DNA of 36,504 nucleotides, taken from the NCBI GenBank assembly GCA_016928395.1, contig JAFGKV010000050.1, forward strand, positions 1 through 36,504, in the 5' to 3' direction. Every line of letters begins with the position of its first letter. Positions within the stretch are counted from its first letter, which is position 1. The notes below the pieces were generated by a model. The model ran no database searches and had not been told where the DNA came from. It saw nothing but the letters and a program-made list of their open reading frames with translations. Shown here piece by piece: positions 11,765-36,504 of this stretch. Source of the stretch: Candidatus Fermentibacterota bacterium (GTDB lineage: Bacteria > JAFGKV01). Position numbers and translations under genes: made by a program.

Positions 11765-11769
11765 CGCCG

Positions 11770-13219: not shown

Positions 13220-13220
13220 T

Positions 13221-13997
13221 TCATGCCTCGCTTGGTGGTAGGCTACAACTAATGGTTGGCTCCTTTCGGCGCAAGGTTCCCCGCCGGCGCATGTGTACCG
13301 ATTCCATCGGACGAAGAGAGCCCTTCGCAAGATCCATGGTCAGCACCAGCCAGAAGGCCTGATTGCGCTTAGGGTCTGGACGAGCGGCCCCATGGGATGA
13401 GTCAACCTTGAAGCCCAATCGCTCGTACTTTTCGAGCATCCGCGCTCGCGAGGTCATTACCACCCCGTGGATTCGAAAGACCCCATGCGAAGCGAAATGG
13501 TCAAAGGCCCTGTGCATCAGTGCACGAGAGAGGGTGGTGCGACCTCGACAGGCCGGGGCAGTGTTGATGTGTACGTGGCCTGGATATCGGCGCCACGGCA
13601 CCTTGAGGCAACCGCTTCGGACATAGGAGATGCCAAGGTTCATAAGGCGTGGGAGGCCTTTCCACGGCAGGGCATACCTTCCCGTCACGATTCCCCCCAG
13701 AGCCGGCAGCACGACGTGCCGACGCCACACTCGTCGATAGCGCGCGGTATTGAGACACGCGAAGACATAGCCGAGCACCTCGTCTTTGTCGCGCGCGACG
13801 AACACCGATGAGGGCTCGAAGTCGGTGTAGTAACGGGTGAATAGATCGGCGAACAGCTCACGATCCAGATCGATCCACCTCTCCAGCGGTTGTCCGGCAT
13901 AGGCGACATCGCAGCAGAGTCGACGGATCTGCTCACGGTCGCCGGATCGATAGGGTGATACGTCTATGGCTCGCATACCGAGAACCTGGCCATCCAC
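13221..13997 (-). CDS. GNAT-family N-acetyltransferase
   Basis: YYTDFEPSSVFVA...VLGYV, YPGHVHINTAP.CRGR, YERLGF. Confidence 0.85.
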   Translation of the reverse strand: MDGQVLGMRAIDVSPYRSGDREQIRRLCCDVAYAGQPLERWIDLDRELFADLFTRYYTDFEPSSVFVARDKDEVLGYVFACLNTARYRRVWRRHVVLPALGGIVTGRYALPWKGLPRLMNLGISYVRSGCLKVPWRRYPGHVHINTAPACRGRTTLSRALMHRAFDHFASHGVFRIHGVVMTSRARMLEKYERLGFKVDSSHGAARPDPKRNQAFWLVLTMDLAKGSLRPMESVHMRRRGTLRRKEPTISCSLPPSEA

Positions 13998-20003: not shown

Positions 20004-20006
20004 GGA

Positions 20007-21002: not shown

Positions 21003-22144
21003 GATGTGATTCCCTCGCGTCGTATGGGACTTCGCACATTGAGGGCCGCGTCATAGACTTCGCGGGTCTGCACTGCCATGCGATGGGGTGTAAACTGGGC
21101 CACGGTCTGCGCCGCCGCATCAACCATGTGTTGTCGGAGCTCATCATCTGTCAGCAATTCGTTCAGCCGCCCTCGGAGAAGCTCATCGTCCTCGTAGGGC
21201 ACAAGAAAGCCGTCTTTCCCGTCGTGGATCAACTCGCCTGCGCCACCATCGGATGGGCCTACCACCGCACACCCCGCGGCCATAGCCTCCATAAAGACCA
21301 GGCCGAAGGCCTCGGTCACTCCCGGCAAGGCCACAACCTTGGCCTTGCGGTAGAGAGATGCCAGGGCATCACCGTGAACCAGGCCGAAGCGCTTGATTCG
21401 CGGCCAGAGGCCGTTTTTGATGGCCAGCGATGCCATGGGGGAAGGTATCCTGGTGCCTGCAACCCACAGTTCGGCATCGGGTACGGCGAGGTAGGGCAGA
21501 CAGGCCACAAGGCGGTCAAGCCCCTTGCGGTAAGGGTTCCCGCCCACAAAGAGGATGCTGTCGTTCCGGCCGGCGGCGTCTCCCTTATCGATAGCAAGAT
21601 CCAGCCCGATGTGAATCGTCGTCATGCATCCGCCTGGGTGGTACGCGTGGAGGACCCTGGTCTTGGTCGCATCGGAATTGGCGATGAGCGCGTGAACCTT
21701 CCCGTAGGCGACTCGTTCCAGGGCTCGGGCAATGGTCGCATAGGCGAGGCGGGTGGGCCAGTCCGGATACCGGGAGCGATGCCGCCAGTAGTACCCTGGA
21801 TCGACGAAGTAGTAGTCATGCACCGTGCCCACCGAGGCGATGTCCCGCGTCCTGAACCACAAGGCCTCACGGGCGTCGATGAAGTGTACGAGGTCAACAT
21901 CGCGCAACGGGCGCAGACGTCGCGAGAATGCCCATGCATGGCCCATCCATCGGGCATGATTGGGCAGTCGGCGAAATGGGACCGGGAGGAAATCCAGGCC
22001 CGGCACGGAAGCGCATTGGCTCGGCGGACACGCCACGACTACCTGGATCCCCAAGCGGAGCAAGCCCGCTGCCAGGGCCCGCGCATAGGTTCCGACACCG
22101 CTATACGGCAAGGCATACTGCCCGGTGGCAAGGCAGACCCTCAC
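20999..22144 (-). CDS. GT4 glycosyltransferase
   Basis: SGVGTY, TVHD, RKGLD, EAFGLVFMEAMAAG (E-x7-E). GTG start at 22144 is coupled to the upstream TGA. Confidence 0.9.
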   Translation of the reverse strand: MRVCLATGQYALPYSGVGTYARALAAGLLRLGIQVVVACPPSQCASVPGLDFLPVPFRRLPNHARWMGHAWAFSRRLRPLRDVDLVHFIDAREALWFRTRDIASVGTVHDYYFVDPGYYWRHRSRYPDWPTRLAYATIARALERVAYGKVHALIANSDATKTRVLHAYHPGGCMTTIHIGLDLAIDKGDAAGRNDSILFVGGNPYRKGLDRLVACLPYLAVPDAELWVAGTRIPSPMASLAIKNGLWPRIKRFGLVHGDALASLYRKAKVVALPGVTEAFGLVFMEAMAAGCAVVGPSDGGAGELIHDGKDGFLVPYEDDELLRGRLNELLTDDELRQHMVDAAAQTVAQFTPHRMAVQTREVYDAALNVRSPIRREGITS

Positions 22145-23301
22145 GCCATCTCCGCCAGAGTCGCCCTCACCCACCGCGCGAAGCGAGGGCCGATGACGTT
22201 CCAGTCATACTGAGCCGCGGTCTCCCTCCCTCTGAGAGACATTCCCGTTCTTCGATCCGCAGCATCGAGCAGTTCCGTCAGGCACGCAGCCACTGCCGAG
22301 GGTTCGGGCCGCGTCACTACACCCGCACCGCTCTCTCTGGCTATCCGGGCGCCGTCGCCTACCGGTGTCGTGACAAAAGGAAGCCCCGCCGCCATATACT
22401 CCAGGATCTTCAAATGGAAGGCATACCGGTTCCAACGGGTCGGCGGGAGGATTGCCAGGCCGACCCACGCTGCGGCCATCAGAGGAGGCGTAGCGTTACT
22501 CGATATGCTGCCGTGCCATGTAACAAACGACGCCAGACCAAGGCGTTGGGCAAGGGAGGCAAGCGGTCTTCGAGCCGGGCCGTCTCCTGCTACCACAATG
22601 CGTATTTCGCGCTTCATCAATGGAAACGCCCTGAGCACGACATCGAGGCCGCAATCGCGCTCCAGGCCACCCACGTAGAGAATGGTTGGCTCCGGAGATT
22701 CTGCGCGGGGAAGCCCAAAAAGGCGCGTGTGCACGCCATTTGGGTAGAGGTGGGTTGACTTTGCGCCGGTCTCAGCAGCGTGACGCTGCAGGGAGAACCC
22801 AGCACATGAGACGGATGTCGCACCGCGCAGGGCACATTCCTGCCACCTGTTGAGGATCCAGCGATGGGGTCCATCAACTCGGCCTCCGCCATAGTCATCC
22901 GCATGATCATAGATGAAGCGGATCCCTCTATCACGGCAGGCCATGGCGGGTACAGGGCCCTGAACCAACGCTACCTTCTCCACGGGCGCCACCGCACGCA
23001 GAGCCGTGCGCAGCATCACGCGATTGATTACCGGTCCCAGCAAGCTGGGCAAAGGGCTGCGTCTCACCGCGGTGGTAGTCCCCGCCAGCCAGATGAGCGG
23101 GCATCCCTCGCCGACAACCCGGCGGGGCCACCCGCGCAAGGGGGATCCGGGCGGCGCCTGGTCACCGCTGATGCCGATCCCCGGAGGGACGAGACTCACC
23201 TTGCGCAAAGGAGCCAGGGACTCGAGGAATGCGGCAAGGTGCCGTATGCGGTGCTCGTGATGGTGGAACAAGTCATTGGCAACCAGGAGCAGGGAATCCA
23301 T
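22141..23301 (-). CDS. GT4 glycosyltransferase
   Basis: YDHAD, PNGV, YVGGL, VAGDGP, LKILEYMAAGLPFVTT, YDW. Confidence 0.88.
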   Translation of the reverse strand: MDSLLLVANDLFHHHEHRIRHLAAFLESLAPLRKVSLVPPGIGISGDQAPPGSPLRGWPRRVVGEGCPLIWLAGTTTAVRRSPLPSLLGPVINRVMLRTALRAVAPVEKVALVQGPVPAMACRDRGIRFIYDHADDYGGGRVDGPHRWILNRWQECALRGATSVSCAGFSLQRHAAETGAKSTHLYPNGVHTRLFGLPRAESPEPTILYVGGLERDCGLDVVLRAFPLMKREIRIVVAGDGPARRPLASLAQRLGLASFVTWHGSISSNATPPLMAAAWVGLAILPPTRWNRYAFHLKILEYMAAGLPFVTTPVGDGARIARESGAGVVTRPEPSAVAACLTELLDAADRRTGMSLRGRETAAQYDWNVIGPRFARWVRATLAEMA

Positions 23302-23430
23302 GTCGTTACCGCCTCAGCCGAACCGCGGCCCGGGGCCCGGCGGGTCGACAGGGCTCGATGGCTATGGTACGATGCGAGCCGGCCGCCGTCAGCGGCGGAG
23401 GGTCTTGGTGTGCGATATAGAAACGAGGTG

Positions 23431-23559
23431 TCAGCCTGTCTGCGGGGCTCGAACCTCTTTCGTTCGGTTCTCGCGCTGGGCCTTGCGTTGGGCGCGTTTG
23501 CGCTTCAGTTGGCGGACTCGCCTGCGGTGAATCTCCGTACGCCTCACTATTCTGCTCAT
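23431..23559 (-). CDS. Very small Arg/Lys-rich protein (42 aa), DUF6800-like
   Basis: ATG at 23559 follows a perfect AAGGAGG RBS. Sequence MSRIVRRTEIHRRRVRQLKRKRAQRKAQRENRTKEVRAPQTG. The family label is from recall. Confidence 0.72.
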   Translation of the reverse strand: MSRIVRRTEIHRRRVRQLKRKRAQRKAQRENRTKEVRAPQTG

Positions 23560-23615
23560 GGAACCTCCTTGTCTGCATGTCAAGAGCTCATTGTCGCGAA
23601 CTGCTGCAATCGAGC

Positions 23616-23644
23616 ATTCTAAGGTCTGGGCGGGCTGGGAGCAA
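23616..23644 (-). promoter_or_regulatory. Probable internal sigma70 promoter upstream of the small basic protein
   Basis: TTGCTC-17 nt-TAGAAT, overlapping the TAG stop of the upstream GT4. Confidence 0.55.
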
Positions 23645-24920
23645 GCCCATGGCCCGATAGCTCGCCCAGCCGGCGGGAAAGATCCCTGCACCGGGCCTGT
23701 ACACTCCAGGCCCTCTCCACCCTCCGCCGCCCCCGGGCGCTGAGCCTCAGGCGAAGCTCGGGCTCATCCATGAGCCGCGCCATGGCCGCGGCCATGGCCT
23801 GCGGGTCGCCGGGCGGCACCAGCAGGCCGGCACCGGCGCCGACAAGTTCGGGAATACCGCTCACCGTGGTGGACACGGTGGGAATTCCCGTGGCCAATGC
23901 CTCAGTGAGCACCGACGGAAGACCATCCATGTTTCCCGCGTCATCCCTCCGTGCGGCGAGCACGAAGAGATCTGTCTTCGCCAGCAGATCCCTCACCGCT
24001 TCCTGCACCAGCGGGCCTTCGAAGCGCACACGATGGGAGATCCCCAGCTCCGTGGCGAGCCCCTTCAGAGAGTGCTCCAGAGGACCGGCGCCGACGATGG
24101 AAAGAAACCACGGCCTCGCGCTGAGCAGAGCCACGGCCTTGAGGAGCACATCAAAGCCTTTGATTGCGACCAGCCGGCCCACCGAGGCGATCCTGCACAC
24201 GGCCGGCTGGGGATCCGGAGGCCGGTACGCATAGGAGGACAGGTCGATGCCGACTCGAATGACCTGTACTCTGCGCGGAGAGATGCCTAAGGCCATGCCG
24301 CGGAGGAGACGGCGGTTGAACCGGCTGATAGTCCTTACCCAGGCGGCTTGGGTGATGCGACGGCCCAGCTCATCGGGATCGGAGAGGTAGATGTCGTGTG
24401 CGTGAGCCGTGGCGCTGAAGGTGGTCCCGTGAAGAATGGCCATAGTACGCGCGGCTGCTGCTGGAGACGAAAGGTAGTGCGCATGGAAGTGCTCGGGTGC
24501 GTGGGGGATCGCCTCCCGTGCGAGATAGAGTGCGCCCAGAGACGCGTGGAATGCTTCGGGGCCTCCGGCCCCGCGCAGGGCCCTCGTCAAGGTGCGGGGT
24601 GCGTGAGTTCCCCAGAACAAGAATGCCCGGGCGATATGCGCCCTGCGCCGCTCTTCGGGCAGGATGACCACAGGGGCATCCAGGGCCTGCACCATGGGAT
24701 GGGCCAGATTGTCAGGATTGGATCCGAAGGCGAAGATGGACACCTGGATGCCGAGTCTGTGCATCTCGTAGAGCTCGCGGAGGATGAATGTCTCGGAGAG
24801 CACGGGATATCGTGCCAAGACGAAACCGACGCGGGGCGCAGTGGCCGTGTAACCCGGGGATTCCCTGTCAATGCTGACTGCCCGTCTGGCCAGAATGGCA
24901 GAACCGCATGGCCCGTTCAT
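23619..24920 (-). CDS. GT4 glycosyltransferase (WcaL-like)
   Basis: YPVLSETFILRE, HFHAHY, S.TAHAHDIY, VGRLVAIKGF, DGLPSVLTEALA.G.P.VST.VSGIPELV. Confidence 0.92.
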   Translation of the reverse strand: MNGPCGSAILARRAVSIDRESPGYTATAPRVGFVLARYPVLSETFILRELYEMHRLGIQVSIFAFGSNPDNLAHPMVQALDAPVVILPEERRRAHIARAFLFWGTHAPRTLTRALRGAGGPEAFHASLGALYLAREAIPHAPEHFHAHYLSSPAAAARTMAILHGTTFSATAHAHDIYLSDPDELGRRITQAAWVRTISRFNRRLLRGMALGISPRRVQVIRVGIDLSSYAYRPPDPQPAVCRIASVGRLVAIKGFDVLLKAVALLSARPWFLSIVGAGPLEHSLKGLATELGISHRVRFEGPLVQEAVRDLLAKTDLFVLAARRDDAGNMDGLPSVLTEALATGIPTVSTTVSGIPELVGAGAGLLVPPGDPQAMAAAMARLMDEPELRLRLSARGRRRVERAWSVQARCRDLSRRLGELSGHGLAPSPPRP

Positions 24921-27004
24921 GGCGAGCGGCCCCGGACAGGATGTGATGCCAGCAGCGAATCGGCTTCGGCATGTCGGCCCAAGCGGCGGAGGCAGAGAGC
25001 CATGTTGGCTGCCACGAGAGGGCGCATCGAAGGGTCACCTCGCGTCATGGCTTGGGCGAATCTGGTGAGAGCCTGGTCAAAGGCGCCTGTCAACATGAGG
25101 GAAACTCCTCGAAGGTTCAGGATTTCGGTGCTGGACTGGCCCTTGTGAGACGCAAGTATACGCAGAGCTCGGCCGGGGTCACCATCGGCGAGGGCGCGCC
25201 GGGTCGCATGAGCTGTCAGCGAGACACTGGAGGGGAACGAGGTGGCCAACGACTCCGATAGCGCAGTGACGGTAGGGCAGGGGCCTCGGAGGCTCTCCAC
25301 GGCTGAGGCCAACAGCTCAGCACTCACCACCGGCAAGGGGCCGCAACGGATGAACGATCGAGCGCCCCGGCCCAGATCCTCGCAACGGCCCATCTTCGCC
25401 AAGGAGACAACCAGCGAGTACCAGATGGCCCGATTGCCCGAATCGGTCTGGAGTGCCCACGCGAAGCGCTGCACGGCACTCTGGTGCTGTGAGACTGCCG
25501 CCAAGAGCTGAGCGCCTTGCGCCATGCGGAGTGCTCGATGACGGCCTCCCTGGGAGCCCGGACGCCCGTGGTCGGCCCACCGCGCCAGAGCGGCTCGATC
25601 CTCGTCGTGGTCATACGAGCCCTGAAAGGACAGCCACCCTTCAGGAATCAGGAGGCCTCGCGTTTCATCCGGCAGCTGCGAGAAGGTGAATACGGGCTGC
25701 AGGCCGGCGGCCTCCGCGGCGCGGGAGATCGAAGCATAGGGAGGATCCGGCTGGGCCGGTAGAGCCGCAGAAAGCCTCGGATCCAAGGTTGAACGGTACC
25801 ATGCTAATCCCAGATACGGCGTGTATACCACGCGAGGTCGGGTGTGCTGAGACCACGCATGGTGCAGCATGAGGAAGAGGTCGGTGCTGCTGTCGGTGAA
25901 CAAGACCCGACCCTCCAACTGAGAGGCCAACGCATCCCTGTAGTCACACGCCGACAGGTCGGTGGAACGGTCAAGCCGAGGGAGAAGCGGAGCCACGAGC
26001 AGCGCAGTCCCCGAACAGATGGCGATGGCGGCAGCCATCCTGGGGAACCTTAGCACACCGACCGCTAGGATTGCCGAGCCTATTATCAAGGGGCACAGGG
26101 GCAGCAGATAGCCGATGACATCGGGCCCCCCGCCTGTGGTTACCGCCACGGCAGCCAGAAGACCACCCGATAGCACCACCAACGGCATGCGGCGAATCAG
26201 TACCGGCAGTGCCAGGGCGGAAAGTCCCAGCGTGACCGGTGGCAGGGATGCGTTGAGGAAACCCTTGAGGGTGCCGAACGTCCCGGCCAGGGACCCACCG
26301 GCCAGCAGGCGCCCCGAAAGCGCGTCGGAGCGGAATTCCTGGAGCGTCACGATCCACAGGAATCCTCGGATCGTCCGGCTGCTGCCCCAGTCAATGCAGG
26401 GAGCGTCGAGAGATCTCAGTGGCAGTATCGCAAAGATCGATAGTGCCAGCGCGGTACCCGCCGCCAGAGGCTTGAGACGCGCACGCACAAGAGGGAACAG
26501 CACCGGGGCGAATGCGACGGCGGATGGGTGATTCCCCAGCGCAAGCCCGAACACATAGCCTGCCCCAAGCGCTGCCCTGGGTGAGGACATCGCGGTGGCA
26601 AGCGCGATGAGAATCATGGTCAGCAGGACCTGTAGCGTATAGACCTCGCCGTGGGTTCCCTGCATCCATACCACCGGCGAGGCGCCGAGTGCGAATCCTC
26701 CGGCCAGACCCAGTGCTACGCCTGCTCGGGCGGCCAGGATCCCCGCTAGCACTGCCGCGGCACTCGCGCCGCTCACTGCGGCGACCCACGAAGCCGCCCG
26801 TGCCCCCGAGACACCGGAGAGGACCTTCACCGCGCGACTCAGCAGGACGAAGAGCGGGAAGCCGGGTGAGTGAGGAATTCCGTGGCACTCCGCCGCCAGG
26901 GCCAACTCGGGCGTGTCATCCCACCCCACATCAGGGAGCATCGTGGCCGCGTAGGCCGTCAGGACCAGGATGCCTGCTGCCAGCGCGGTCAGGATCGGTT
27001 TCAC
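24917..27004 (-). CDS. DUF2723/TMEM260-like GT-C membrane glycosyltransferase with C-terminal TPR repeats
   Basis: P.VGWDDTPEL, GIPHSPGFPLFVLL, W.QG..GEVYTL, GLALGNH, P.IDWG, many TM helices, TPR-like C-terminus (ILNLRGVSLM..G.FDQA). GTG start at 27004 is coupled to the upstream TGA. Confidence 0.85.
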   Translation of the reverse strand: MKPILTALAAGILVLTAYAATMLPDVGWDDTPELALAAECHGIPHSPGFPLFVLLSRAVKVLSGVSGARAASWVAAVSGASAAAVLAGILAARAGVALGLAGGFALGASPVVWMQGTHGEVYTLQVLLTMILIALATAMSSPRAALGAGYVFGLALGNHPSAVAFAPVLFPLVRARLKPLAAGTALALSIFAILPLRSLDAPCIDWGSSRTIRGFLWIVTLQEFRSDALSGRLLAGGSLAGTFGTLKGFLNASLPPVTLGLSALALPVLIRRMPLVVLSGGLLAAVAVTTGGGPDVIGYLLPLCPLIIGSAILAVGVLRFPRMAAAIAICSGTALLVAPLLPRLDRSTDLSACDYRDALASQLEGRVLFTDSSTDLFLMLHHAWSQHTRPRVVYTPYLGLAWYRSTLDPRLSAALPAQPDPPYASISRAAEAAGLQPVFTFSQLPDETRGLLIPEGWLSFQGSYDHDEDRAALARWADHGRPGSQGGRHRALRMAQGAQLLAAVSQHQSAVQRFAWALQTDSGNRAIWYSLVVSLAKMGRCEDLGRGARSFIRCGPLPVVSAELLASAVESLRGPCPTVTALSESLATSFPSSVSLTAHATRRALADGDPGRALRILASHKGQSSTEILNLRGVSLMLTGAFDQALTRFAQAMTRGDPSMRPLVAANMALCLRRLGRHAEADSLLASHPVRGRSP

Positions 27005-28395
27005 GGCATTCTCAAGAGAGTCTTGAGCAGAAACCATGCGGCATTGGCATTGAGTGCCCGCTGGGTGAAGGTCTTGTGCCGGGTGAGAGAGCTCAGGGCC
27101 TTCGGTCTCCGGTAGAACGCCAGGACCGCGGATCGTCGTGCGCGCCACACATCGCGGGGCGGCAGTCCCTCACTACGGTGAACCGGGGGTGTGTGAATGC
27201 CCCAGTCCGACCATCGGGGGGAGAGAATCGCCTTGCGTGCGATCAGCTCATCGTAGAGCCTCGTGCCCGGATAGGGCTTGAATATTTCAAACTTGGCGAC
27301 ATCGAGACCCAAGGATCTGGAGAAGTGAGCCGTCTGTACCAGAGTGTTAGCCGATTCGCCCGGTAGACCAAGCATGAAGAACCCCCACACGGTCATGCCC
27401 AAGCGATGGGCGGCATCAATTACCGGGGTCGCGCGGTCGAGGCTCTGATGCTTGCCCGCCCGAACCGCGACGGCATCGTTGGAGGTTTCAATGCCCATGC
27501 CGAAGCTATGGACCCCCATGGTCCGCATCGCGGACAGCAGGCCATCATCCAGCATGTCGCACCGGAGACCATTACCGAAGGCATAGGGTATGCGGGGGCC
27601 TCGACTTGCGAAGGCTTCCATGATTGCCATGGCGCGGTCTCGATCCGCGGTGAAGCAATCATCCATGATATGGATCTCCCGGGCCCCGATGGTTTGACGA
27701 ACATGCCAGGCATGCTCCACCGCCCGTTCCGGCGTCAGATATCGTACCTTTGCACCGAAGAGGCTGGTTGACTGACAGAAGCCGCAGCGCCCCGGGCATC
27801 CTCGGCTAAGCATGATCGTACCGACAGGAAGTGCCCGGGCATCCGGGGGGCGATAGCCGGACGGCCTTCTGACCAGGTGCCATGCCGGTAAGGGGAGATC
27901 ATTCAACTCCCCCTCAGTGAGCAGGGTGCGGGGCACGGCTGGTTCGTCAGGCCGCACCACGCCCGATACTGAAAGGTCTGGCTCTTGCCTCACCAGGAGA
28001 GCGCAGTACTCGGTGATCGCGTTCTCAGCTTCACCCTGGAACACGGCATCGAAGCAGCCAGTAGCCAGCACCTCACCCGGGAGGGCACTGGCGTGGGGTC
28101 CGCCGATGAGCACCGGGCACCCAACAGCGGATCTCATCCGCGCAGCCCATCTCCGCGCAGCAGGAAATGCCGGCGTCGTAGCGGTGAATCCCACGATGTC
28201 GGGCTGCCACCGGCGGGCCCACACCCTCACGCCATGACTATCTGCCCCCTCCCCATCAGCATCCACCACCCGGACACTGTGGCCCTCGGACTCCAGGCAC
28301 GCCGCGATCTGAAGCAACCCCATCGGCGGGTACACCGGTCTCATCGGGCTGCCATAGGCCGCCCATTGCGGAGGCGCGATAAGCAGGACCTTCAT
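27001..28395 (-). CDS. Cobalamin(B12)-binding radical SAM protein (probable class B methyltransferase)
   Basis: N-terminal B12-binding domain (PPMGLLQIAA.L, PDIVG, GGPHAS), SRGCPGRCGFC, DDCFT, GIET, FMLGLPGE, PYPGT. Confidence 0.94.
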   Translation of the reverse strand: MKVLLIAPPQWAAYGSPMRPVYPPMGLLQIAACLESEGHSVRVVDADGEGADSHGVRVWARRWQPDIVGFTATTPAFPAARRWAARMRSAVGCPVLIGGPHASALPGEVLATGCFDAVFQGEAENAITEYCALLVRQEPDLSVSGVVRPDEPAVPRTLLTEGELNDLPLPAWHLVRRPSGYRPPDARALPVGTIMLSRGCPGRCGFCQSTSLFGAKVRYLTPERAVEHAWHVRQTIGAREIHIMDDCFTADRDRAMAIMEAFASRGPRIPYAFGNGLRCDMLDDGLLSAMRTMGVHSFGMGIETSNDAVAVRAGKHQSLDRATPVIDAAHRLGMTVWGFFMLGLPGESANTLVQTAHFSRSLGLDVAKFEIFKPYPGTRLYDELIARKAILSPRWSDWGIHTPPVHRSEGLPPRDVWRARRSAVLAFYRRPKALSSLTRHKTFTQRALNANAAWFLLKTLLRMP

Positions 28396-29264
28396 GCGAC
28401 ACCTTGTGATGCGACCGTGTCGAAGCGGCCGGCGAGAGGGATCTGCACGACTGGGCAGACCGGGAGGCTCGCCTGAAGAGCCATGGCATCGCTCAGGGTT
28501 CCAACCCTGGCGACGGCTTGTACGATGTCAAGAAGCCGGGACAGAAGATCGGGGAAACGCAGGCCCTCGACCTCTGCGTGGGCACAGTAGCACGAGTACT
28601 CCCGGCAGGTCACCTCGCGTGCCACTCGGTTGGTGAGGATCTTCAACGATTGACCGGCGCGCACCGTCTCTTCGGCGGTGGGCAAGGTGACGGGCAGTTG
28701 AGGAGTGTGCATGCCGTCTGGCAGAAAGGGCGTGGAGCCTCGACAATCTGATGCATAGAGAAACCCCGCCTTGTCCACGGCTGCAAGGGTCTCTGGGGTC
28801 ACGATCCATCCGGGTGCGGCGAATGCCTTGGCCCGCTCTCCCAAAGCGGCGGCGAACGCGGCTTGGCCTCGGCGCACTTCCAGGTCTACTCGTTCCAGAG
28901 GCCATGCCCGGCAGCGGTGAATCCACAGCCAGTGATCATGCCCGTGCAGTGCCAGCTCATGCCCGAAGACCATGGGCCGCGCCACCCGCGCCGCAGCCGC
29001 CATGGAGCGGACGGGCACCGCGATACCCGCCATGAACGCGCTGACAATGCTGGCGCCGGCGGGTCGAAGCCGGAGCATCTGGCGTAGCCGATGGGGCTTT
29101 CCGATGATGCGTGCCAAAGCTAAGCCGGATCGATCCGGACCCATGGGCATCATCACCGTTGCCCGCACACCCCGCGATGCAAGAATGCGAAGCATGCTCG
29201 GGAGTCCAAGCATGAGACCGGTTGCCGTTTCCACGTCGATGCGCAGGGCGAAGTATGGTATCAC
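28392..29264 (-). CDS. ArnD-like polysaccharide deacetylase/deformylase
   Basis: ALRIDVET..G...G.P, MGPDRSG, GHELALHGHDH..W, AAPGW, YASDCRG..PF.P, Q.P.TLPT, HAEVEG, matching ArnD motifs. GTG start at 29264 is coupled. Confidence 0.85.
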   Translation of the reverse strand: MIPYFALRIDVETATGLMLGLPSMLRILASRGVRATVMMPMGPDRSGLALARIIGKPHRLRQMLRLRPAGASIVSAFMAGIAVPVRSMAAAARVARPMVFGHELALHGHDHWLWIHRCRAWPLERVDLEVRRGQAAFAAALGERAKAFAAPGWIVTPETLAAVDKAGFLYASDCRGSTPFLPDGMHTPQLPVTLPTAEETVRAGQSLKILTNRVAREVTCREYSCYCAHAEVEGLRFPDLLSRLLDIVQAVARVGTLSDAMALQASLPVCPVVQIPLAGRFDTVASQGVA

Positions 29265-29974
29265 TTCTGGAACCACCCGGCAGCGTACCATGCCCGGTGC
29301 CGGAGTGCAGGCACAGTGCCCATCAGTCTGGCGTCAAGATTCTGCAGCCATCGAACGGCAGGCGTCATCCGCCGCGAGAGGAGCACGACAAGAGGTGAGA
29401 GTAGGAAGAACCACGCCATCTCTTTTCGCATGAAGCCGCTTCCCAACGAATCCAGCTCTCGCGCGCTCAGGAAGCGAGGCCGCACATGCCGCCCCGGAAG
29501 CGCCCGCCTGGCCAAGGAGACCAGCGGGTGCCCGGCCAGTGGTTCCACCACGGCGAACACGCCTCCGGGCATGAGGACCCGATACACCTCCTCAACCACC
29601 GTGCGGGGCTCCACATGCATCAGCATTGTCTGTTCCCAGACTGCGGCCATCATACCGGTGCGGAGCGGAAGAACCTGCGCATCGGCCAGGACAAGCTGCA
29701 GGGTAGCCGGCCGACAGTTCACGATGTCCATGGCGTACGCCGCCGGATTCTGTTCGTCGGCACAGGTCGATTCCATGCCGCTGCCAAGCTCCAGAATCGA
29801 ACCCGGCGGTGCGCGACGGAGCCCGTCAAAGGCCCAGGACCTACATGGCCGAAGAAACCACTGATACCCGTAGGCCCTTCGTCCCGCCGCAGAATCGCCC
29901 CAGTACTCCCGAAAGAACTGGCGCTCCAGGGGTCTGACCCCTGACGATGTTGCCTCTGACAGTCCGCTGCTCAT
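29261..29974 (-). CDS. Class I SAM-dependent methyltransferase
   Basis: ILELGSG (motif I), ADAQVLPL, LMHV, EVYRVLMPGG.F...EP. ATG at 29974 forms an ATGA overlap with the upstream stop. Confidence 0.82.
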   Translation of the reverse strand: MSSGLSEATSSGVRPLERQFFREYWGDSAAGRRAYGYQWFLRPCRSWAFDGLRRAPPGSILELGSGMESTCADEQNPAAYAMDIVNCRPATLQLVLADAQVLPLRTGMMAAVWEQTMLMHVEPRTVVEEVYRVLMPGGVFAVVEPLAGHPLVSLARRALPGRHVRPRFLSARELDSLGSGFMRKEMAWFFLLSPLVVLLSRRMTPAVRWLQNLDARLMGTVPALRHRAWYAAGWFQK

Positions 29975-30717
29975 CGCCGGTCCTGCTGCGCCAAGAGAGG
30001 CGTAGAACGAAGCCTGACCCGGGCGCACAGGGTCAGCATGTCCAGCCCGACCCGCCCTATCCTGCCGGGTGAATAGCGCGATGCCCGACATGAGCCACCG
30101 CCGCATACGGGCACCTCCACAGGGTTCCTCGCCGACAGAAGACCGAGCCCTGGCAGACACGGGCCGAGTTCGCTCAAGTGGACACAGCGAGCGGCTGTTT
30201 CGTGGGCATAGAGTCTGAACATAGAGCCATGGTCTCGGATTGGGCTCGGGCGCAGCAGGTTGCAGCACATCCGCAAGACCAGCGACACCGCTAACCGGGT
30301 CACGGAGCGTCGGCGTCCCATGCGGTATCCCACGACAAGGTCAGCATGTCCAATCAGGGGAATCAGGAGGGCCAGTTGGTCGGGCGGGGGATCCATGTCG
30401 GCATCCATGGTGGCTACCATCGCAATGTCCGGCATCCGCAACGCGTGGGCCATTCCCCGCAGCACGGCGCGGTGTTGCCCTGATGGTAAGGGGCATCTGA
30501 CATGCGCAAACAGTCTCGTATCCAGCCCAGACAGGAGTATCGGAGTGGCATCGGAGGAGGCGTCGTCCGCGAACACGATACGAACCGGCCGGTCAGAGGC
30601 AGCGGTGAAGGCGCGCAGACTCGCCGCCAGGTCCGGCAACACGGCCTCCTCATTGCGAACGGGTATCACGACGGCAAGGGCACCACGCCCGCGTGCTTCG
30701 TCAGGAAGAGCAGTCAA
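29971..30717 (-). CDS. ArnC-like GT2 polyprenyl-phosphate glycosyltransferase
   Basis: VVIPVRNEE, DDASSD, GQHRAVLRG, TMDAD.DPP, D.VVGYR, DHGSMFRLY, SRYS. Probable TTG start at 30717 after GAAGG; the track start at 30798 lies inside a hairpin. Confidence 0.85.
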   Translation of the reverse strand: MTALPDEARGRGALAVVIPVRNEEAVLPDLAASLRAFTAASDRPVRIVFADDASSDATPILLSGLDTRLFAHVRCPLPSGQHRAVLRGMAHALRMPDIAMVATMDADMDPPPDQLALLIPLIGHADLVVGYRMGRRRSVTRLAVSLVLRMCCNLLRPSPIRDHGSMFRLYAHETAARCVHLSELGPCLPGLGLLSARNPVEVPVCGGGSCRASRYSPGRIGRVGLDMLTLCARVRLRSTPLLAQQDRR

Positions 30718-30785
30718 GGAACGTGACCTTCGCCCAGCGACCGGGTGAAAACAGGGCTTCCTGGCGGATCTGCGATGCCACAATG

Positions 30786-30818
30786 CCGCCCGCCCCACCT
30801 GAGACGGGGGGCGGGCGG
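30786..30818 (-). terminator. Strong GC hairpin after the PorV-family gene (terminator-like, no U-tract)
   Basis: 11-bp perfect stem CCGCCCGCCCC / GGGGCGGGCGG, 21 nt after the stop; followed by CATTGT rather than poly-U. Confidence 0.55.
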
Positions 30819-30839: not shown

Positions 30840-31760
30840 CTAAAAGCCTATGCCTAAGGAGAGGCGGTGCGTGTCCTGAAGCTTTGCGTACGGTACGTAG
30901 GCGTAGTCAATGGCCGCTGCCATCGAACCCAGAGAGGTCCTTAGCCCACCACCAAAGCTCAGGTCCTCGTCATCGTAGCGGATCTTATAGCCCGTGCGCA
31001 ATGCCACCATTTCCGAGTACCAGTACTCCATGCCCATGGTGTACCTTTCCTGGTTGTCGCTGGGATGGCTACCGGCAAAGGCGACAGTCAGACGGTGAGG
31101 CCCGCTATGCAGCGGGTCTATGGCGAACCCCAGATTGAAGTTGATGGGGAGGGGAAAACTCTCAGTGATGAAGGTCAGGTCCGGCCCGAAGTTCGTGACC
31201 GCCATCGCGATTCTCAGCGACTTGAAGCCTGTCTCATAGTTCGTACCGACATCCGCGGACCATCCGGTGGCATCCACATCGTGGGCATACAGCTGAATGT
31301 ATTTCGCCGTGATGCCAAAACTGAATTTGTCCGTGAGAAAGCGCGAATAGGAAAGGCCCACGGCCATATTGTGGGTGCTGAAGGTTTGCCCCGTTCCATT
31401 GGGGTAGAACGGCGTGGTGACCTCCATGTCGTCCATGTGAAGCAGGGTCGCCGACACCCCAACTACTCCGGCGTCTCCGGGCACAGGCATGGCGAATGCG
31501 AGGAATTCACACTTGATGTCCGCAGGCCACTCCGTATGGCTCAACAGGAGTTGCCGTTGGTCCACCAGGCTCAAAGCGCCCGGATTGTAGTAGATGGCCG
31601 CCGCATCGTCCGCCACGGCCAGGAATGCCTCCCCCATACCCACGGCCCGAGGCGAGACACCGATCTGAAGGAAATTGGCCCCAGTAGTTCCAACCTTTAC
31701 CTGGGCGCTGAGAGTCCCCGGTATGACGAGCAGGGCGGCCAGGATGGCGATCTTCTTCAT
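30840..31760 (-). CDS. PorV/PorQ-family outer-membrane beta-barrel
   Basis: Signal peptide, KVGTTGANFLQIGVSPRAVGMGEA, AIYYNPGAL, D.G..Y.TGF, N.GP, LP, ALRTGY, DYAY, terminal Phe beta-signal. GGGAGG RBS. Confidence 0.9.
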   Translation of the reverse strand: MKKIAILAALLVIPGTLSAQVKVGTTGANFLQIGVSPRAVGMGEAFLAVADDAAAIYYNPGALSLVDQRQLLLSHTEWPADIKCEFLAFAMPVPGDAGVVGVSATLLHMDDMEVTTPFYPNGTGQTFSTHNMAVGLSYSRFLTDKFSFGITAKYIQLYAHDVDATGWSADVGTNYETGFKSLRIAMAVTNFGPDLTFITESFPLPINFNLGFAIDPLHSGPHRLTVAFAGSHPSDNQERYTMGMEYWYSEMVALRTGYKIRYDDEDLSFGGGLRTSLGSMAAAIDYAYVPYAKLQDTHRLSLGIGF

Positions 31761-31774
31761 TGCAGTCCTCCCGG

Positions 31775-33886
31775 CTACTTCAGCACCACGAACTTGCCCA
31801 CCTCGATGGATCCCTTCTTGGGGCCTGAGGTGTATTCCACGCTGAAGAGGTAGATGTCACTCACGATGCTTTGATTGTTCCGGTTAATCATGTCCCAGGG
31901 TTCTCGGGGGCTTGACTCGTCAGCATGATAGACGGTGTCAACCAAGTCTCCGTCCAATGTGTAGATCCTGATGGTCGCGGTTCCCGGCGCCAGATTGATG
32001 AAGTCTATTCTGCGAGTATGCTCGCTCCACCGGACCTTCGGATCGTAGGCCTCCCACTGGAGACCTTCGTAGTCAGCGTCGATTCGGTATGGGTTGGGCA
32101 CGACCCGTACCGCAAGGTCAGAGTCCGTACCGAATTCATTGGCACCAGGAAAGATAGGGCCCAGTTCCAGGTAGTGCTTGAGAACCGAGCTCTCCAGGGG
32201 GCCGAGCCCCGAGCGTTCATCCCCCATGTCGAAGGCCACCACGGAGTAGTAGTACGGGTAGAGCGCAGTCAATCCTTCGTCTACATAGGTATAGGCGTAG
32301 GCGTCACCCGGAGAGCCCTGGTAGGGGGGAGGGGGCCATTCCGGCTCATAGTCTACCACATCGGGGTTCTGCGCCCACTCGTACAGGAGGGTGGAGCTTT
32401 CCAAGGTGCCGTAGCGGCTCCGGTAGATACGGTACCCTGCGAAGTCCTCCAACTGGGTGAACGGATCGATGCTTAGCTCCGAGTCACTGGACCAGTGGAG
32501 GGTGACTCTATTCTTGCCGGGAACGGCCATGACCTTGGGCGCAGACGGTGGAGGCGGGCCTCGGAAATCCGGTATGCCGTCACCTTCGACCCAGATAGTG
32601 TCTTCATTCACTATGCGGAACTCGCCGCGATACCCGTCGCCGTCTGTATCGATGCCCGGGATATCGTATACCCGGGCCGCCCACACGGCATTGGCGGCAA
32701 CGTCCAGGAAGTTGAAGACGCCCGGTGAGCGTACGAAGTTGGCGCCGCAGACATAGGCCAAGGTCACCGGGAGCGTGTCACCCGGATCGATATCGAACGG
32801 CCCGAATGACAACAGGTATCTCGTGTCTTCATAGGGCGTTCCCGCGGGGATCTGATCCGCAACTTCGACCTGATTCGGATCGAAATACCCGTTGGACATG
32901 ATGCGGTACTTGGCGGCATCGCCGTCGGGGGTGCCACCCACATCGGTCGGATCAGTCACAACCCTGGGGCCCCAGTCGCGCTGGGTATTGGTGTCGGAGA
33001 GCCACCAGTTGTAGCTCACGCGAAGGTCTGGATTCGGGGTGCGCACAATGCGCACGCCACTGACGCCGCTCGTGTTGTCGGAACCGTAGTAGTCGGAGAT
33101 CCAGGCGAGGTTGATGGTGATGGAGTCGCCGAAGACATCCACCGTCTTCTCGGCGAAGCCCGTGACGTCGTCCTGGGCCCCGTCGTGGATATCGGTGTTG
33201 GGACCGACGCAGTCGGCGTCGATATAGACGCCCAAATAGACATCGCGGATAGTCTTGTTATCATTCCGGATGTTCTTCACACTGAAGTCGAACAGGACGA
33301 AGTCCTCCGCGTAGGAATAACTCCATGAGTAGCTCCGCTGGGTCACCTCGATACCCATAGGCATGTGAGACGTCGGCACCTTGTCATACGTTTCCGAGGT
33401 AAAGGTGTCGGCGTACACCGCGACGTAGTCCTGCTCAGAGACGGCCCGGACGGCGATGAGCGAATCACTGCTGGAGATTGAGAGCGAATCGATGAGGCAG
33501 GGAATCGCCTTGTAGGTACAGGGAAACATCTCATTCTCATGCTGCCACCCATCGGCGCCAACGGACACCAGCGTATCATTGTCGACCACGCCGCCGATCC
33601 ACATGGCGCCCTGGAACAGATAGTCGATCCCTGAGCCCCCGGGGAACTCGCACTTGGGCAGCCATTGCTCCGTGCCCCGAACATCGGTCTGCTCGTCATT
33701 TCCGAAGAATCCAAAGTTGGAAATGGTGAGCCAGATATTGCCCACCATGTGGGTCTTCTGTTCTCGGGCCGGGTCATCGGCGCTGGGCGCCCGCTGGCCT
33801 GCTCCGCCGGGTACGGTGGCAGCCATGCGGGCCACGGCCGGCGTCGAAAGGAGCGCCAGGATCGCGGCAACTGTGCGCGGCTTCAT
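31775..33886 (-). CDS. Secreted 703-aa protein with FN3-like domain and T9SS-like C-terminal domain
   Basis: Sec signal (AVA), N-terminal GNIWLTISNFG..CEFPGGSG..YLF.G.MWIGG domain, PPPP linker, FN3-like V.L.W...DF.GYRIYRS...YYYSV.AFD, and C-terminal VVPNPY...IRIYTLDGDLV...WD.....SDIYLF.V...GKFVVLK. Confidence 0.85.
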   Translation of the reverse strand: MKPRTVAAILALLSTPAVARMAATVPGGAGQRAPSADDPAREQKTHMVGNIWLTISNFGFFGNDEQTDVRGTEQWLPKCEFPGGSGIDYLFQGAMWIGGVVDNDTLVSVGADGWQHENEMFPCTYKAIPCLIDSLSISSSDSLIAVRAVSEQDYVAVYADTFTSETYDKVPTSHMPMGIEVTQRSYSWSYSYAEDFVLFDFSVKNIRNDNKTIRDVYLGVYIDADCVGPNTDIHDGAQDDVTGFAEKTVDVFGDSITINLAWISDYYGSDNTSGVSGVRIVRTPNPDLRVSYNWWLSDTNTQRDWGPRVVTDPTDVGGTPDGDAAKYRIMSNGYFDPNQVEVADQIPAGTPYEDTRYLLSFGPFDIDPGDTLPVTLAYVCGANFVRSPGVFNFLDVAANAVWAARVYDIPGIDTDGDGYRGEFRIVNEDTIWVEGDGIPDFRGPPPPSAPKVMAVPGKNRVTLHWSSDSELSIDPFTQLEDFAGYRIYRSRYGTLESSTLLYEWAQNPDVVDYEPEWPPPPYQGSPGDAYAYTYVDEGLTALYPYYYSVVAFDMGDERSGLGPLESSVLKHYLELGPIFPGANEFGTDSDLAVRVVPNPYRIDADYEGLQWEAYDPKVRWSEHTRRIDFINLAPGTATIRIYTLDGDLVDTVYHADESSPREPWDMINRNNQSIVSDIYLFSVEYTSGPKKGSIEVGKFVVLK

Positions 33887-33899
33887 CGGTCACGCCTCC

Positions 33900-36504
33900 C
33901 TAGAAGGTGGTTCTGATGCCGACCCGGATATTGCGGCCGGCCAGGTAGTTATAGGGGTCGCGCAGATAGAGCCTGCCGTCGCCCCAGGGCGTACCCCAGC
34001 GTGCGTAGACCTCTCGGACATTGGAACGGTCAAACACATTGCGGACATCGAGAACCAGATCGAGCCCGATCCCGGCAACCTGGAATCCCTTGTTCATTTT
34101 GATGTCCAGTTCGCTGGTATAAGGCTTTCGCACATTGTTTGCCACATTGTCCCCTTCGACTTTTCTGCCACTGGATTCATCCTCGAGTGTGTAGGGCAGC
34201 CCGCTCCCATACTTCCAGAGCACATTAACGCCCCAGTTGGAGGGAAGTCTCTGGCCGAAGAGCCGGACTTCGTCACCGGGGAAGAATCGGAAGTCCACGC
34301 TGGTCGTGAGGGAGTTGCGTTCATCCCAGTCAAGATAGTTGTCGGTCAGCGGCAGGTTCTCACCGGCGAAGCCCGAGTCGTACACGCTGCGGTCCGAGGA
34401 GCTCTTACCCGTGGCGATCATGTATGCGTATGACGCATTCCCGCTGATATGGTTGGAGTAGCGCTTCTCGAAGTTCAGCTCGAAGCCTCTGATGCGCCCA
34501 TAGTCTACATTGCCGTACACGTAGAACCGGTCAAACCGGTCCCCGAGAACCCATTGATTCACCAAATCAAACACATCCTTGAAGAACCCTGTGACATCAA
34601 CCTTGAAGTTCTCGTTGAACGCATGATTGATGCCGAACTCGTAGGCCACGGTGCGCTCGGGCAGTAAGTTGGGATTTCCAAACAGGTTATAGGCCGAAGG
34701 GCCCTGCGTATCCCTGGCATATACCTTGTCGAACTCGGGCCACTGGACGAAGTGGCCGTAATTGAAATAGAGCACGTCATGGTCGGTGATGGGATGGCTG
34801 ATGCCAAGGCGCGGGCTCATGTAGAACTTCCACATGTCCAGCGGGATGAGCGCGCCGCTTTGATCATACACTTCACGGCCTTCGAGGTTCGTGCCGAGGT
34901 AGCGGAAGTCCAGCCGGAGCCCGGCGTTCACGATGAGCCCCTCGAACTCCATCTTGTCTTGCGCGTACACCGCGCCGTCTACCGGTTGGCGGGAGTAGAA
35001 ATCACGGAAGGTCCCGCGGTCTGGATACCCGCCCAGGCTGTCCGCCTCAACGTCTTCGTAGGGATACTCATGCTGCGGGTACTGCACCTCTTTGTGGGTG
35101 AAATCATTGAAGCTGAGCGAGAAGCCGGTCTTGGCCTGGTGGTGCTTGCCGAGTTGGGTCGTCAGGTCGAACTTGACGGTGCCGATGGTCTCCTTGCGCT
35201 CGTGATACTGTGCCCACTGATCGTAGGTGCCTTCACGGCCCCGGTTCCATGAGCCGCTCCAGTTGGCGTCTTCATACGGCTCGCCGAAGAGATCGCACAC
35301 CCCGTTGTTGTTGTAGTCGACCCACTCACTGTCTTGGTCATCGGCCCGACCGGAGCCATCGGCCACGCCATTGCCGTTCCAGTCATCCCAACGGCTGCGC
35401 CACTCAGGCGGGTCATACTTGCTATTGCCTTCGCTTCCATAGGGGTTGAGGGTGGCGTGGTAGTTGTCGCCGTTGGGATCGGGGTTGGTGACCGGGTCAA
35501 AGCCGGGCTCCTGCGCATCGGGCACGCCGTCTATGCCCACGTCATAGAACGGTTCAGCGTCGAATCCGGGGTCGGCAAAGCCGTCGTAGGGATCCCACAG
35601 GCCATTACCGTTCCAGTCGGTGAAGCGTTCGCCGGGATCGTACACGCCGTTGGGCTCAACGTAGGCAAACGAGCGGATCCCATTGGCGGTGACGACCCAG
35701 AGGTCGTCGACCCGCATATCGCCTTCACCAGGCTGCCACACTCCATCGCCGTTCAGGTCGTTCCACGGGTCATACACGCCGTTGAACTGATAATCAATAT
35801 AGGCGACTTCGCCTGAGTCCCAGAGACCGTTGCCGTTGCGGTCTACGAAGCTCCATCCATCCTGGAAGGGCTCGCCCTCGTCCCATCGGCCGTTGACGTT
35901 CAGATCCCCGAATGCCTCCGCGTAGTCAAACTGGCTGTTGGGAAGATCGTATACGCCGTTGCCGTTGAGGTCTTCATACGGTTCGCCGGGGTCCCACGCG
36001 CCGTTTCCCTCTCCGGCCGAGCGATCGCCGGTGAGCGGCAATCCATCGGCGCCGCAGTCCAGGAACGGTTCGCCATCGCACCAGGGTTCGTGGTAGTCGG
36101 GCACGGACCTTCGATAGCTGCCCCAGAAGTAGCTCCACGGCAAGATTACAAGGTTGTCGAGATCCGCCAGTAAGTCGTAGAAGGAGCGATAATCGCCCCA
36201 GGATCCCCAGGTCGAGACCGGCACGATCTTGGGGAACCAGTCGGGACGGTTCCCCCCGGGAAGCAACTCGTAGTGGGTCGTAAACAGACCGGCGTTCACG
36301 GTATAAAACGTGTTGTTGCTGAGCGTATGCGTCAAATTGAGATTGTAGTGATTCGAGGTTCGCAATGTCTGATGGTTTGTCGAAGGCGTAAAGATCTTGG
36401 CCCAGTCAGATCCCTCATTGCGGTCATAGGACCCTCGATAGCTCAGCGTCATCTTCATCTGAGGCTTGAAGCGATAGCTCAGCTTTGCGGAGGCAGAGTA
36501 GCTG
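33900..36504 (-). CDS. TonB-dependent receptor (C-terminal barrel part; 5' end outside the window)
   Basis: Frame is open to the window edge (..SYSASAKLSYRFKPQMKM). YAQDKMEFEGLIVNAGLRLD, SPRLGISHPIT, YFNYGHF.Q.P, GNPNLLPERTVAYEFG, NVFDR.N, terminal R.IRVGIRTTF. Confidence 0.93.
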   Translation of the reverse strand, partial: SYSASAKLSYRFKPQMKMTLSYRGSYDRNEGSDWAKIFTPSTNHQTLRTSNHYNLNLTHTLSNNTFYTVNAGLFTTHYELLPGGNRPDWFPKIVPVSTWGSWGDYRSFYDLLADLDNLVILPWSYFWGSYRRSVPDYHEPWCDGEPFLDCGADGLPLTGDRSAGEGNGAWDPGEPYEDLNGNGVYDLPNSQFDYAEAFGDLNVNGRWDEGEPFQDGWSFVDRNGNGLWDSGEVAYIDYQFNGVYDPWNDLNGDGVWQPGEGDMRVDDLWVVTANGIRSFAYVEPNGVYDPGERFTDWNGNGLWDPYDGFADPGFDAEPFYDVGIDGVPDAQEPGFDPVTNPDPNGDNYHATLNPYGSEGNSKYDPPEWRSRWDDWNGNGVADGSGRADDQDSEWVDYNNNGVCDLFGEPYEDANWSGSWNRGREGTYDQWAQYHERKETIGTVKFDLTTQLGKHHQAKTGFSLSFNDFTHKEVQYPQHEYPYEDVEADSLGGYPDRGTFRDFYSRQPVDGAVYAQDKMEFEGLIVNAGLRLDFRYLGTNLEGREVYDQSGALIPLDMWKFYMSPRLGISHPITDHDVLYFNYGHFVQWPEFDKVYARDTQGPSAYNLFGNPNLLPERTVAYEFGINHAFNENFKVDVTGFFKDVFDLVNQWVLGDRFDRFYVYGNVDYGRIRGFELNFEKRYSNHISGNASYAYMIATGKSSSDRSVYDSGFAGENLPLTDNYLDWDERNSLTTSVDFRFFPGDEVRLFGQRLPSNWGVNVLWKYGSGLPYTLEDESSGRKVEGDNVANNVRKPYTSELDIKMNKGFQVAGIGLDLVLDVRNVFDRSNVREVYARWGTPWGDGRLYLRDPYNYLAGRNIRVGIRTTF
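35240..36090 (-). repeat. About 14 degenerate acidic peptide repeats, D-x-N-G-N-G-x-(W/Y)-D-x-G-E-(P)-(F/Y), inside the TonB-dependent receptor
   Basis: Examples: GNGAWDPGEPYED, LNGNGVYD, DLNVNGRWDEGEPFQD, DRNGNGLWDSGE, DLNGDGVWQPGE, PNGVYDPGERFTD, WNGNGLWDP, DWNGNGVAD, DYNNNGVCD, GEPYEDANWSGSWN. Confidence 0.88.

Follow-up and report, generated by a model that had tools for sequence, protein, structure and literature searches.

A recurrent receptor-cargo-barrel gene cassette in Candidatus Fermentibacterota as a candidate lipoprotein-free surface capture unit

Examination of contig JAFGKV010000050.1 of the Candidatus Fermentibacterota bacterium assembly GCA_016928395.1 revealed three consecutive minus-strand genes coding for a TonB-dependent receptor, a 703-amino acid secreted protein (hereafter the cargo) and an outer-membrane barrel of the PorV/PorQ family. 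The contig (C55) makes up the whole stretch of 36,504 b that was analysed (the window) and belongs to a genome of 4.79 Mb in 343 contigs, with 62% G+C and 94% completeness. We lean slightly towards the view that the three genes form one operon and encode a surface nutrient-capture unit, in which a beta-supersandwich cargo, tethered by its C-terminal domain (CTD), feeds the co-encoded Oar-type receptor. The gene order, the family memberships, the folds, the homology of the CTD, the recurrence of the cassette and its co-inheritance are documented below.

The 703-aa cargo would be exported by Sec and would then cross the outer membrane, by means of its CTD, through a SprA-based type IX secretion system (T9SS). 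Left uncleaved, the CTD would remain on the extracellular face of the cassette barrel, as those of PorZ and PorU remain on PorQ and PorV, and would in this way keep the supersandwich head at the cell surface with no lipid anchor involved. A polymer, with a glycan as the likeliest candidate, would be bound and possibly processed by the head and then passed to the receptor for import.

Gene layout, cargo tail and barrel

The three open reading frames (ORFs) lie head to tail, with the receptor gene at 33900..>36504, the cargo gene at 31775..33886 and the barrel gene (306 aa) at 30840..31760. They are separated by 13 nt (33887..33899), with a GGAGG ribosome-binding site before the cargo ATG, and by 14 nt (31761..31774), with GGGAGG before the barrel ATG. 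An earlier note on this DNA had described a tight triad closed by a strong hairpin. The tight spacing and the ribosome-binding sites were confirmed, and a GC-rich hairpin of the same strand is indeed present at 30786-30818, 21 nt past the barrel stop codon (81-nt fold of -40.3 kcal/mol, z -2.49); it has no T-tail and was not flagged by a terminator scan of the window. A 157-nt contig of RNA library X2, a metatranscriptome of the source study, is identical to the window over 31783-31928, the CTD-coding end of the cargo gene, and two further pieces of RNA libraries, of 33-34 nt with 3 mismatches, match the locus. Since RNA libraries can carry DNA, these matches are not proof of transcription.

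The end of the cargo (residues 588-703; 31778..32125, minus strand) is homologous to the type-A CTDs of T9SS substrates, from which it differs by an insert of about 35 aa after its PNPY motif. A profile of 31 tails from the family was aligned by hhalign with one of 20 canonical CTDs from the source genome at 96.6% probability (E 5.4e-10, 66 columns). Among 59 homologs, tails matched the models of PorZ (22), TIGR04183 (15), PorU (11) and PF18962 (10) at E<=0.01, all with weak scores; in ten homologs inspected singly, every such match was confined to the final 70-110 residues of the protein and to the C-terminal end of the model. One cargo paralog of the source genome, on contig C159, reached 24.5 bits on TIGR04183, above its cut-off of 23. 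The AlphaFold2 (AF2) model of the cargo has seven strands within residues 594-701, with a predicted local distance difference test score (pLDDT) of about 56-91. In the PDB, the best sequence match to the CTD profile was the PorU CTD (6za2), at a non-significant E of 0.1. The type-A-like tail claimed in the earlier note is thus supported by homology at the level of the family, the window's own tail staying below the thresholds of hidden Markov models (HMMs).

The barrel (P0003, 306 aa, 30840..31760, minus strand) scores 224.2 bits on the PorV/PorQ family model NF033709 (cut-off 90) and belongs to a cassette-type subfamily. It had been taken for a PorV paralog. Membership of the PorV/PorQ family holds, but the protein falls below both equivalog cut-offs, with 108.4 bits against 220 for PorQ (NF033711) and 81.3 against 250 for PorV (NF033710). 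The five other cassette barrels of the source genome score 54-90 bits on the PorQ equivalog. Nine loci of this genome exceed the NF033709 cut-off, and the most PorV-like barrel among them, on contig C97 (G000:C97:809-4968), reaches 164.9 bits on NF033710 (cut-off 250); it is likely the general PorV of this bacterium. Its neighbour is homologous to the 'T9SS-dependent M6-like inactivated metalloprotease', scoring 236.7 bits against a cut-off of 600. The first residue of the window barrel past the predicted signal-peptide cleavage site, Gln20 (codon 31700-31703), shows no variation among 60 homologs; this recalls the 'Q-rule' that is said to apply in Bacteroidetes.

A complex of the barrel (residues 20-306) with the CTD (588-703) was predicted in three runs with a separate alignment for each chain, together with 3 controls. 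The score was 0.93 in all three runs and 0.04 in the best control; in the benchmark, the 0.93 mark is attained by 58 of the 80 solved complexes and by 2 of the 110 pairs that are mismatched. Contacts agreed between runs at 97% or more, with a pLDDT of at least 83 for the partner and of 91-92 for the barrel. Of the 16 CTD columns that are invariant, ten belong to the predicted interface (p 0.04). The passing score may come from resemblance to solved PorV-type complexes; solved structures may include complexes of PorV-family barrels with CTD proteins. The pairing of CTD and PorV-family barrel put forward in the earlier note is, like the cassette itself, well supported in silico.

The family scores and the predicted interface also bear on another reading of the barrel, as a FadL-type channel that passes a hydrophobic or amphiphilic product of a secreted enzyme, the middle protein, with no anchoring of one protein by the other. 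A match to Toluene_X/FadL does exist at 25.5 bits, below the cut-off of 29.7, and some sources call homologs 'long-subunit fatty acid transport protein'. The PorV/PorQ score of 224 bits is far higher, however, the model of CTD and barrel passes its controls, and a CTD is present on the cargo in every case, so that we regard such a channel as highly improbable.

Recurrence and inheritance of the cassette

Five tight copies of the cassette were found in the source genome by tblastn and ORF maps (on contigs C55, C159, C135, C240 and C151), all in the order receptor, cargo, barrel on the same strand, with gaps of at most 14 nt or overlapping genes. A sixth, on C293, is split, with receptor and barrel adjacent and a cargo homolog 3 kb upstream, and two more cargo homologs (C172 and C22) have no adjacent barrel gene. 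Head size varies between the cargo paralogs of this genome (687-1279 aa), while a tail made of an FN3-like domain and a CTD is common to them. The best homolog of the window cargo (84% identity) is labelled Candidatus Eisenbacteria, and a homolog with 77% identity lies on a contig labelled Candidatus Fermentibacteria (locus L002). In the collection used, the phylum-level group of the source genome is represented by three species genomes, each of which holds 8-9 matches to the cargo profile.

A survey across genomes covered 77 loci around cargo homologs, scanned with HMMs made from the paralogs of the source genome. The exact order receptor, cargo, barrel was present in 23 of the 77, and six displayed receptor, cargo, barrel, cargo, barrel; several arrays contain cargo genes only. 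Among the 108 cargo genes of these loci, the downstream neighbour is a barrel in 40 cases and a cargo in 28, never a receptor, with no such neighbour in 25 and the locus edge in 15. Upstream, a receptor is found in 37 cases, a cargo in 24 and a barrel in 7, the remainder having none of these (27) or the locus edge (13). The earlier note had expected the triad to co-occur elsewhere, and it does; its recurrence both within the source genome and between genomes excludes chance adjacency. Locus L015 led to a large phylum in which 67 of 101 sampled genomes have the cargo family, a tally that includes the unpublished genome G098, and 15 of the 16 loci fetched from this phylum showed the order seen on C293 (cargo first, then receptor and barrel after some 4 kb of other genes). 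At one locus, L108, the interval between cargo and receptor (10684-14878) encodes a CTD protein of 875 aa, with an N-terminal match to positions 1-117 of the ExeM/NucH model, and a 504-aa protein of no family.

Trees of the three genes were compared for 32 triads, namely the 26 of the 77 loci that have three complete consecutive genes, the other 51 being excluded, and six from the source genome. They were nearly congruent: 24 of 29 splits were shared by receptor and cargo, 21 by cargo and barrel and 24 by receptor and barrel, where permuted labels gave 2 at most, and Mantel correlations between the three gene distances were 0.84-0.94. Each cassette is thus duplicated and inherited as one unit. 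Such congruence reflects a common history and does not prove contact between the proteins.

Tandem arrays give an indication of how the barrel may be used. In eight from other genomes, with the order receptor, cargo, barrel, cargo, barrel (L003, L016, L039, L055, L057, L058, L061 and L067), DNA identity between the two barrel genes is 97.9-100%; the cargo pairs, compared in all but L055, share 52-69% protein identity. The near-identical barrel copies suggest gene conversion confined to the barrel gene. As they stand beside diverged cargos, one barrel sequence can serve cargos that have diverged. Every cargo gene of the duplicated arrays nevertheless retains a barrel gene of its own, a 1:1 dosage more readily explained by a stoichiometric anchor than by a shuttle that is recycled. 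Barrel use would then be stoichiometric, with a generic docking site rather than a private lock and key.

The same arrays also bear on a rival reading, a dedicated shuttle, in which the cassette barrel merely escorts the cargo from the SprA translocon and does not anchor it. Such a role could be accommodated by the homology of the cargo tail to ordinary type-A CTDs, by the service of diverged cargos by identical barrels and by the presence in the genome of PorU-like C25 proteins (best 218 bits, below the cut-off of 420). A general, more PorV-like barrel is however already available on C97, and a recycling carrier has no need of the 1:1 dosage that the duplicated arrays keep. Moreover, the tails of homologs match the retained CTD of PorZ more often than the generic model (22 against 15 of 59), although all these scores are weak. 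We consider the shuttle unlikely, and anchoring by the cassette barrel remains the preferred reading.

Receptor, cargo head and secretion route

The receptor gene (33900..36504, minus strand) is truncated at its 5' end by the contig end; its 867 visible codons score 82.5 bits on PF00593. An ortholog from locus L001 (P0242, 1196 aa, 84% identical) comprises a signal peptide, a CarboxypepD_reg-like N-terminal extension (NTE), a plug and a barrel, with matches to PF13715/PF13620 and to PF07715 Plug (31.5 bits); unlike the truncated window receptor, it has no PF00593 match listed at E<=0.01. Because this ortholog carries them, the window receptor can be said to be short of about 345 N-terminal residues, corresponding to NTE and plug. 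A search for the missing part across the assembly returned paralogs at 40% identity or less and nothing closer, and a DNA contig of run X1, the probable source run, extends 1568 nt past the end of the window.

The AF2 model of P0242 has an overall pLDDT of 64.4, with a confident barrel. Compared with solved structures, it is nearest to BtuB (Z 37.6, root-mean-square deviation (rmsd) 2.5 over 526 aligned residues) and FecA (Z 36.7), followed by SusC-type chains (Z 27.8-30.4), and its NTE matches that of SusC (9hfj) with a Z of 12.7. TIGR04056, the SusC/RagA model with a cut-off of 368, was not among the matches of the truncated window receptor; a receptor from a cassette of the C293 type in another genome scores 61.9 bits on it.

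A long receptor loop contains an insert of about 335-360 aa rich in Asp, Asn and Gly (approximately 35230..36236, minus strand; combined fraction 0.35). AF2 left the corresponding residues 421-756 of P0242 unfolded (pLDDT <50). The two long flanking strands end oppositely in turns of 2-4 residues that resemble periplasmic turns, and the insert is for this reason predicted to be an extracellular loop. Its repeats resemble DxNGNGxxD and, by their likeness to thrombospondin type-3 repeats, are probably calcium-binding. Among 32 cassette receptors, the segment at this site spans at least 249 aa in 24, 161-176 aa in 3 and 44-56 aa in 5.

The cargo (P0002; 31775..33886, minus strand) belongs to a family without a name. 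Scans of Pfam and NCBIfam returned no family match, a search of the ESM Atlas returned unnamed clusters and nothing else, and its homologs, at least 1293 in number, are each annotated as hypothetical or unnamed. As stated in the earlier note, it has a signal and no lipobox: its N-terminus is hydrophobic and resembles a signal peptide, the first Cys does not occur before residue 79, and a lipobox-like motif is found in 2 of 59 family members. Its AF2 model (pLDDT 83.5, predicted template modelling score 0.80) consists of a galactose-mutarotase-like beta-supersandwich at residues ~40-445 (32552..33769, minus strand), a conserved poly-Pro linker (GPPPP..P), an FN3-like beta domain at residues ~450-575 (32162..32539, minus strand) with the conserved columns W465, E470 and Y485, and the CTD. 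The FN3-like domain was recognised from model strands and from Foldseek rows with FN3 arrays. Fold searches were made with the whole model and scarcely covered the FN3-like and CTD parts.

The top four VIA-align rows for the head (242-275 residues aligned) were dextran dextrinase (9ju0, Z 19.7, rmsd 3.5 over 265 residues), glucoamylase (1lf6, 18.4), glucodextranase (1ulv, 18.4) and GH116 (18.3). Aldose epimerases followed at Z ~12-13, and supersandwich matches reached E ~1e-6 in Foldseek. The head thus shares its fold with aldose epimerases and with the N-domains of glucoamylase, GH116 and GH94. It seems, from the model, likelier to bind than to hydrolyse, since the supersandwich is not followed by a catalytic domain of the (alpha/alpha)6 or TIM type. 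The distinction from SusD that had been proposed for the middle protein is upheld by the missing Pfam match, by the missing lipobox and by the all-beta supersandwich in place of the helical SusD/RagB fold.

Indications on the substrate come from the neighbours of two of the five paralogous cassettes. A GH31 enzyme is encoded directly downstream of the C135 cassette (G000:C135:10412-13393), and a CBM20 protein with a CTD directly downstream of that on C151 (G000:C151:8338-10155). Together with the fold of the head, these neighbours point to a glycan, perhaps alpha-glucans for the C135 and C151 copies. The window cassette itself is followed on the minus strand (18870-30798) by genes for a GT2 glycosyltransferase, a methyltransferase, a polysaccharide deacetylase, B12/radical-SAM enzymes, a TMEM260-like/TPR protein and GT4 glycosyltransferases, the first five of which keep their order after the cassette in locus L002 (10222-16523). 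These biosynthetic genes say little about the substrate; a link to a surface glycan or to protein glycosylation is possible.

Several observations weigh against a CTD-tethered capture unit. The tail of the window cargo gave no match to any CTD HMM of Pfam or NCBIfam at E<=0.1, and the predicted interface holds no excess of barrel residues that are invariant (7 of 42, p 0.72). Many cargo genes have no adjoining barrel gene: the next gene is a barrel for 40 of the 93 that do not border a locus edge, another cargo for 28 and neither for 25. With the receptor taken into account, distances of CTD and barrel have a partial Mantel correlation of 0.07, a value reached by 506 of 2000 permutations and not significant, so that the two show no co-evolution beyond the shared history of the cassette. 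Taken with the identical barrels that serve diverged cargos and with the 40 barrels after 93 cargo genes, this leaves the 'private' pairing of barrel and cargo that the earlier note had proposed unsupported. The supersandwich fold also occurs in the P1 domain of YidC, a non-sugar protein (Z 13.1), downstream of the window cassette lie genes for glycosyltransferases and radical-SAM enzymes and none for degradative enzymes, and cooperation between receptor and cargo is suggested by gene linkage only. Finally, the GldL, GldM and GldN models were unmatched in the source genome (94% complete), in a search with no positive-control genome, and GldK was matched at the level of its FGE-sulfatase domain only (87 bits against a cut-off of 350).

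The T9SS context assumed by the earlier note was recovered in part. In the source genome, SprA is encoded by a frame of 1892 aa on C299 (SprA_N, 62.5 bits), along with 74 TIGR04183 CTD matches and the PorU-like proteins below cut-off, and PorL/M/N were not detected in the search lacking a positive control. SprA was also found in all five other cassette genomes tested, and GldL/M/N were not detected in five other cassette genomes by searches likewise run without a positive control. In the phylum of genome G006, SprA_N was matched in 99 of 101 genomes and the GldL model in one, weakly, again with no positive control. These blanks are not proof of absence, because no genome known to have GldL served as control; in the G006 phylum, either the motor proteins have diverged past models trained on Bacteroidota or SprA runs without them. 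Co-occurrence of cargo and SprA is not discriminating: of 101 genomes, 99 have SprA and 67 the cargo, and two of the latter, G076 and G078, gave no SprA match.

A receptor acting outwards would do away with the motor altogether. The Oar-type barrel would then export or expose the 703-aa protein and the PorV-like barrel would hold it, the classical T9SS motor being uninvolved. PopC secretion that depends on Oar has been published for Myxococcus (PMC6434023). The ortholog P0242 has the NTE, plug and barrel of the Oar class, and GldL/M/N went undetected in the source genome and in five other cassette genomes. Those searches had no positive control, however, SprA and the 74 CTD matches indicate a CTD-dependent route in the source genome, arrays made of cargo genes only exist with no receptor nearby, and PopC is not known to carry a CTD. 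Outward transport by the receptor thus appears quite unlikely, and delivery of the cargo through SprA, with import by the receptor, is retained as the preferred reading.

If correct, this reading would make PorV/PorQ barrels general membrane anchors for surface proteins, beyond their place in the secretion machinery, and would show how large uncultured polymer-degrading lineages without SusD give their TonB-dependent importers a surface partner. The size of the unnamed head family and its presence in two thirds of the sampled genomes of one large phylum (67 of 101) add to its relevance. In addition, the predicted interface supplies residues of CTD and barrel that can be tested in structural work on T9SS, and cassette neighbours such as GH31 and CBM20 provide a handle for predicting substrates in uncultured bacteria.

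Comparison with known systems

No description of the cassette was found in the full-text literature searched, which leaves aside supplementary files and about 1.7 million PubMed Central articles. Within that scope, what was not found described is the coupling, through a conserved operon, to an Oar-type receptor, the family of supersandwich cargos and its spread outside classical Bacteroidota. The principle of anchoring is itself already known, because retention of the PorU CTD on PorV and of the PorZ CTD on PorQ has been published (PMC10202324); according to the same review, cognate PorV-like barrels may shield CTDs from cleavage. The closest parallel is accordingly with PorQ-PorZ and PorV-PorU of the T9SS attachment complex of Porphyromonas gingivalis, in which a barrel of this family holds a T9SS protein by its uncleaved CTD, as is predicted here, and for the PorZ and PorU models the weak HMM matches of the cassette tails involve the C-terminal end in each case. 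In contrast to these pairs, the cassette barrel is neither equivalog, the protein held would be a supersandwich and not PorZ or PorU, and the pair shares its operon with a gene for a TonB-dependent receptor and is present several times per genome as paralogs.

Genes for type-B cargo proteins also cluster with their own PorP/SprF barrels, and the barrel has been proposed as the anchor of the cargo (PMC10202324). SprB-SprF thus resembles the cassette in gene clustering and in the role proposed for the barrel. The cassette differs by its type-A-like tail, by a barrel of the PorV/PorQ and not of the PorP/SprF type, by the lack of a gliding context and by the inclusion of a receptor gene. BamG-BamH of the Bacteroidota barrel assembly machinery (BAM) offers a further likeness, as a 14-stranded FadL-like barrel there binds a surface protein through extracellular loops (PMC12578637); this pair belongs to BAM and has no CTD, and it is likened to the cassette barrel without shown homology.

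On the side of the receptor, secretion of PopC in Myxococcus xanthus depends on Oar, which shares with the cassette receptor the subclass with CarboxypepD_reg NTE, plug and barrel and is functionally tied to a secreted protein (PMC6434023). The cassette has a T9SS-type CTD and a PorV-like barrel, whereas the Oar system is without both.

As a more tentative generalisation, candidate phyla near Bacteroidota (with records labelled Eisenbacteria, Fermentibacteria, Zixibacteria, KSB1, WOR-3, LCP-89 and others) may possess lipoprotein-free capture units with interchangeable heads delivered by T9SS, in which a PorQ-like barrel permanently tethers an uncleaved CTD beside an Oar-type transporter. This could amount to a second, independent solution to the task of SusC/SusD, and one that may lack a recognisable GldLMN motor. 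With SusC/SusD (RagA/RagB), BtuB-BtuG and XusA-XusB, the cassette has in common a TonB-dependent transporter with an NTE co-encoded with what would here be its surface partner; for SusC/SusD in particular, the likeness extends to the two paralogous cassettes beside GH31 or CBM20 and to the match of the P0242 NTE with that of SusC. It departs from SusC/SusD in that the partner is a non-lipoprotein of non-helical fold, the window receptor has no TIGR04056 match, and the receptor stands closer in structure to BtuB and FecA.

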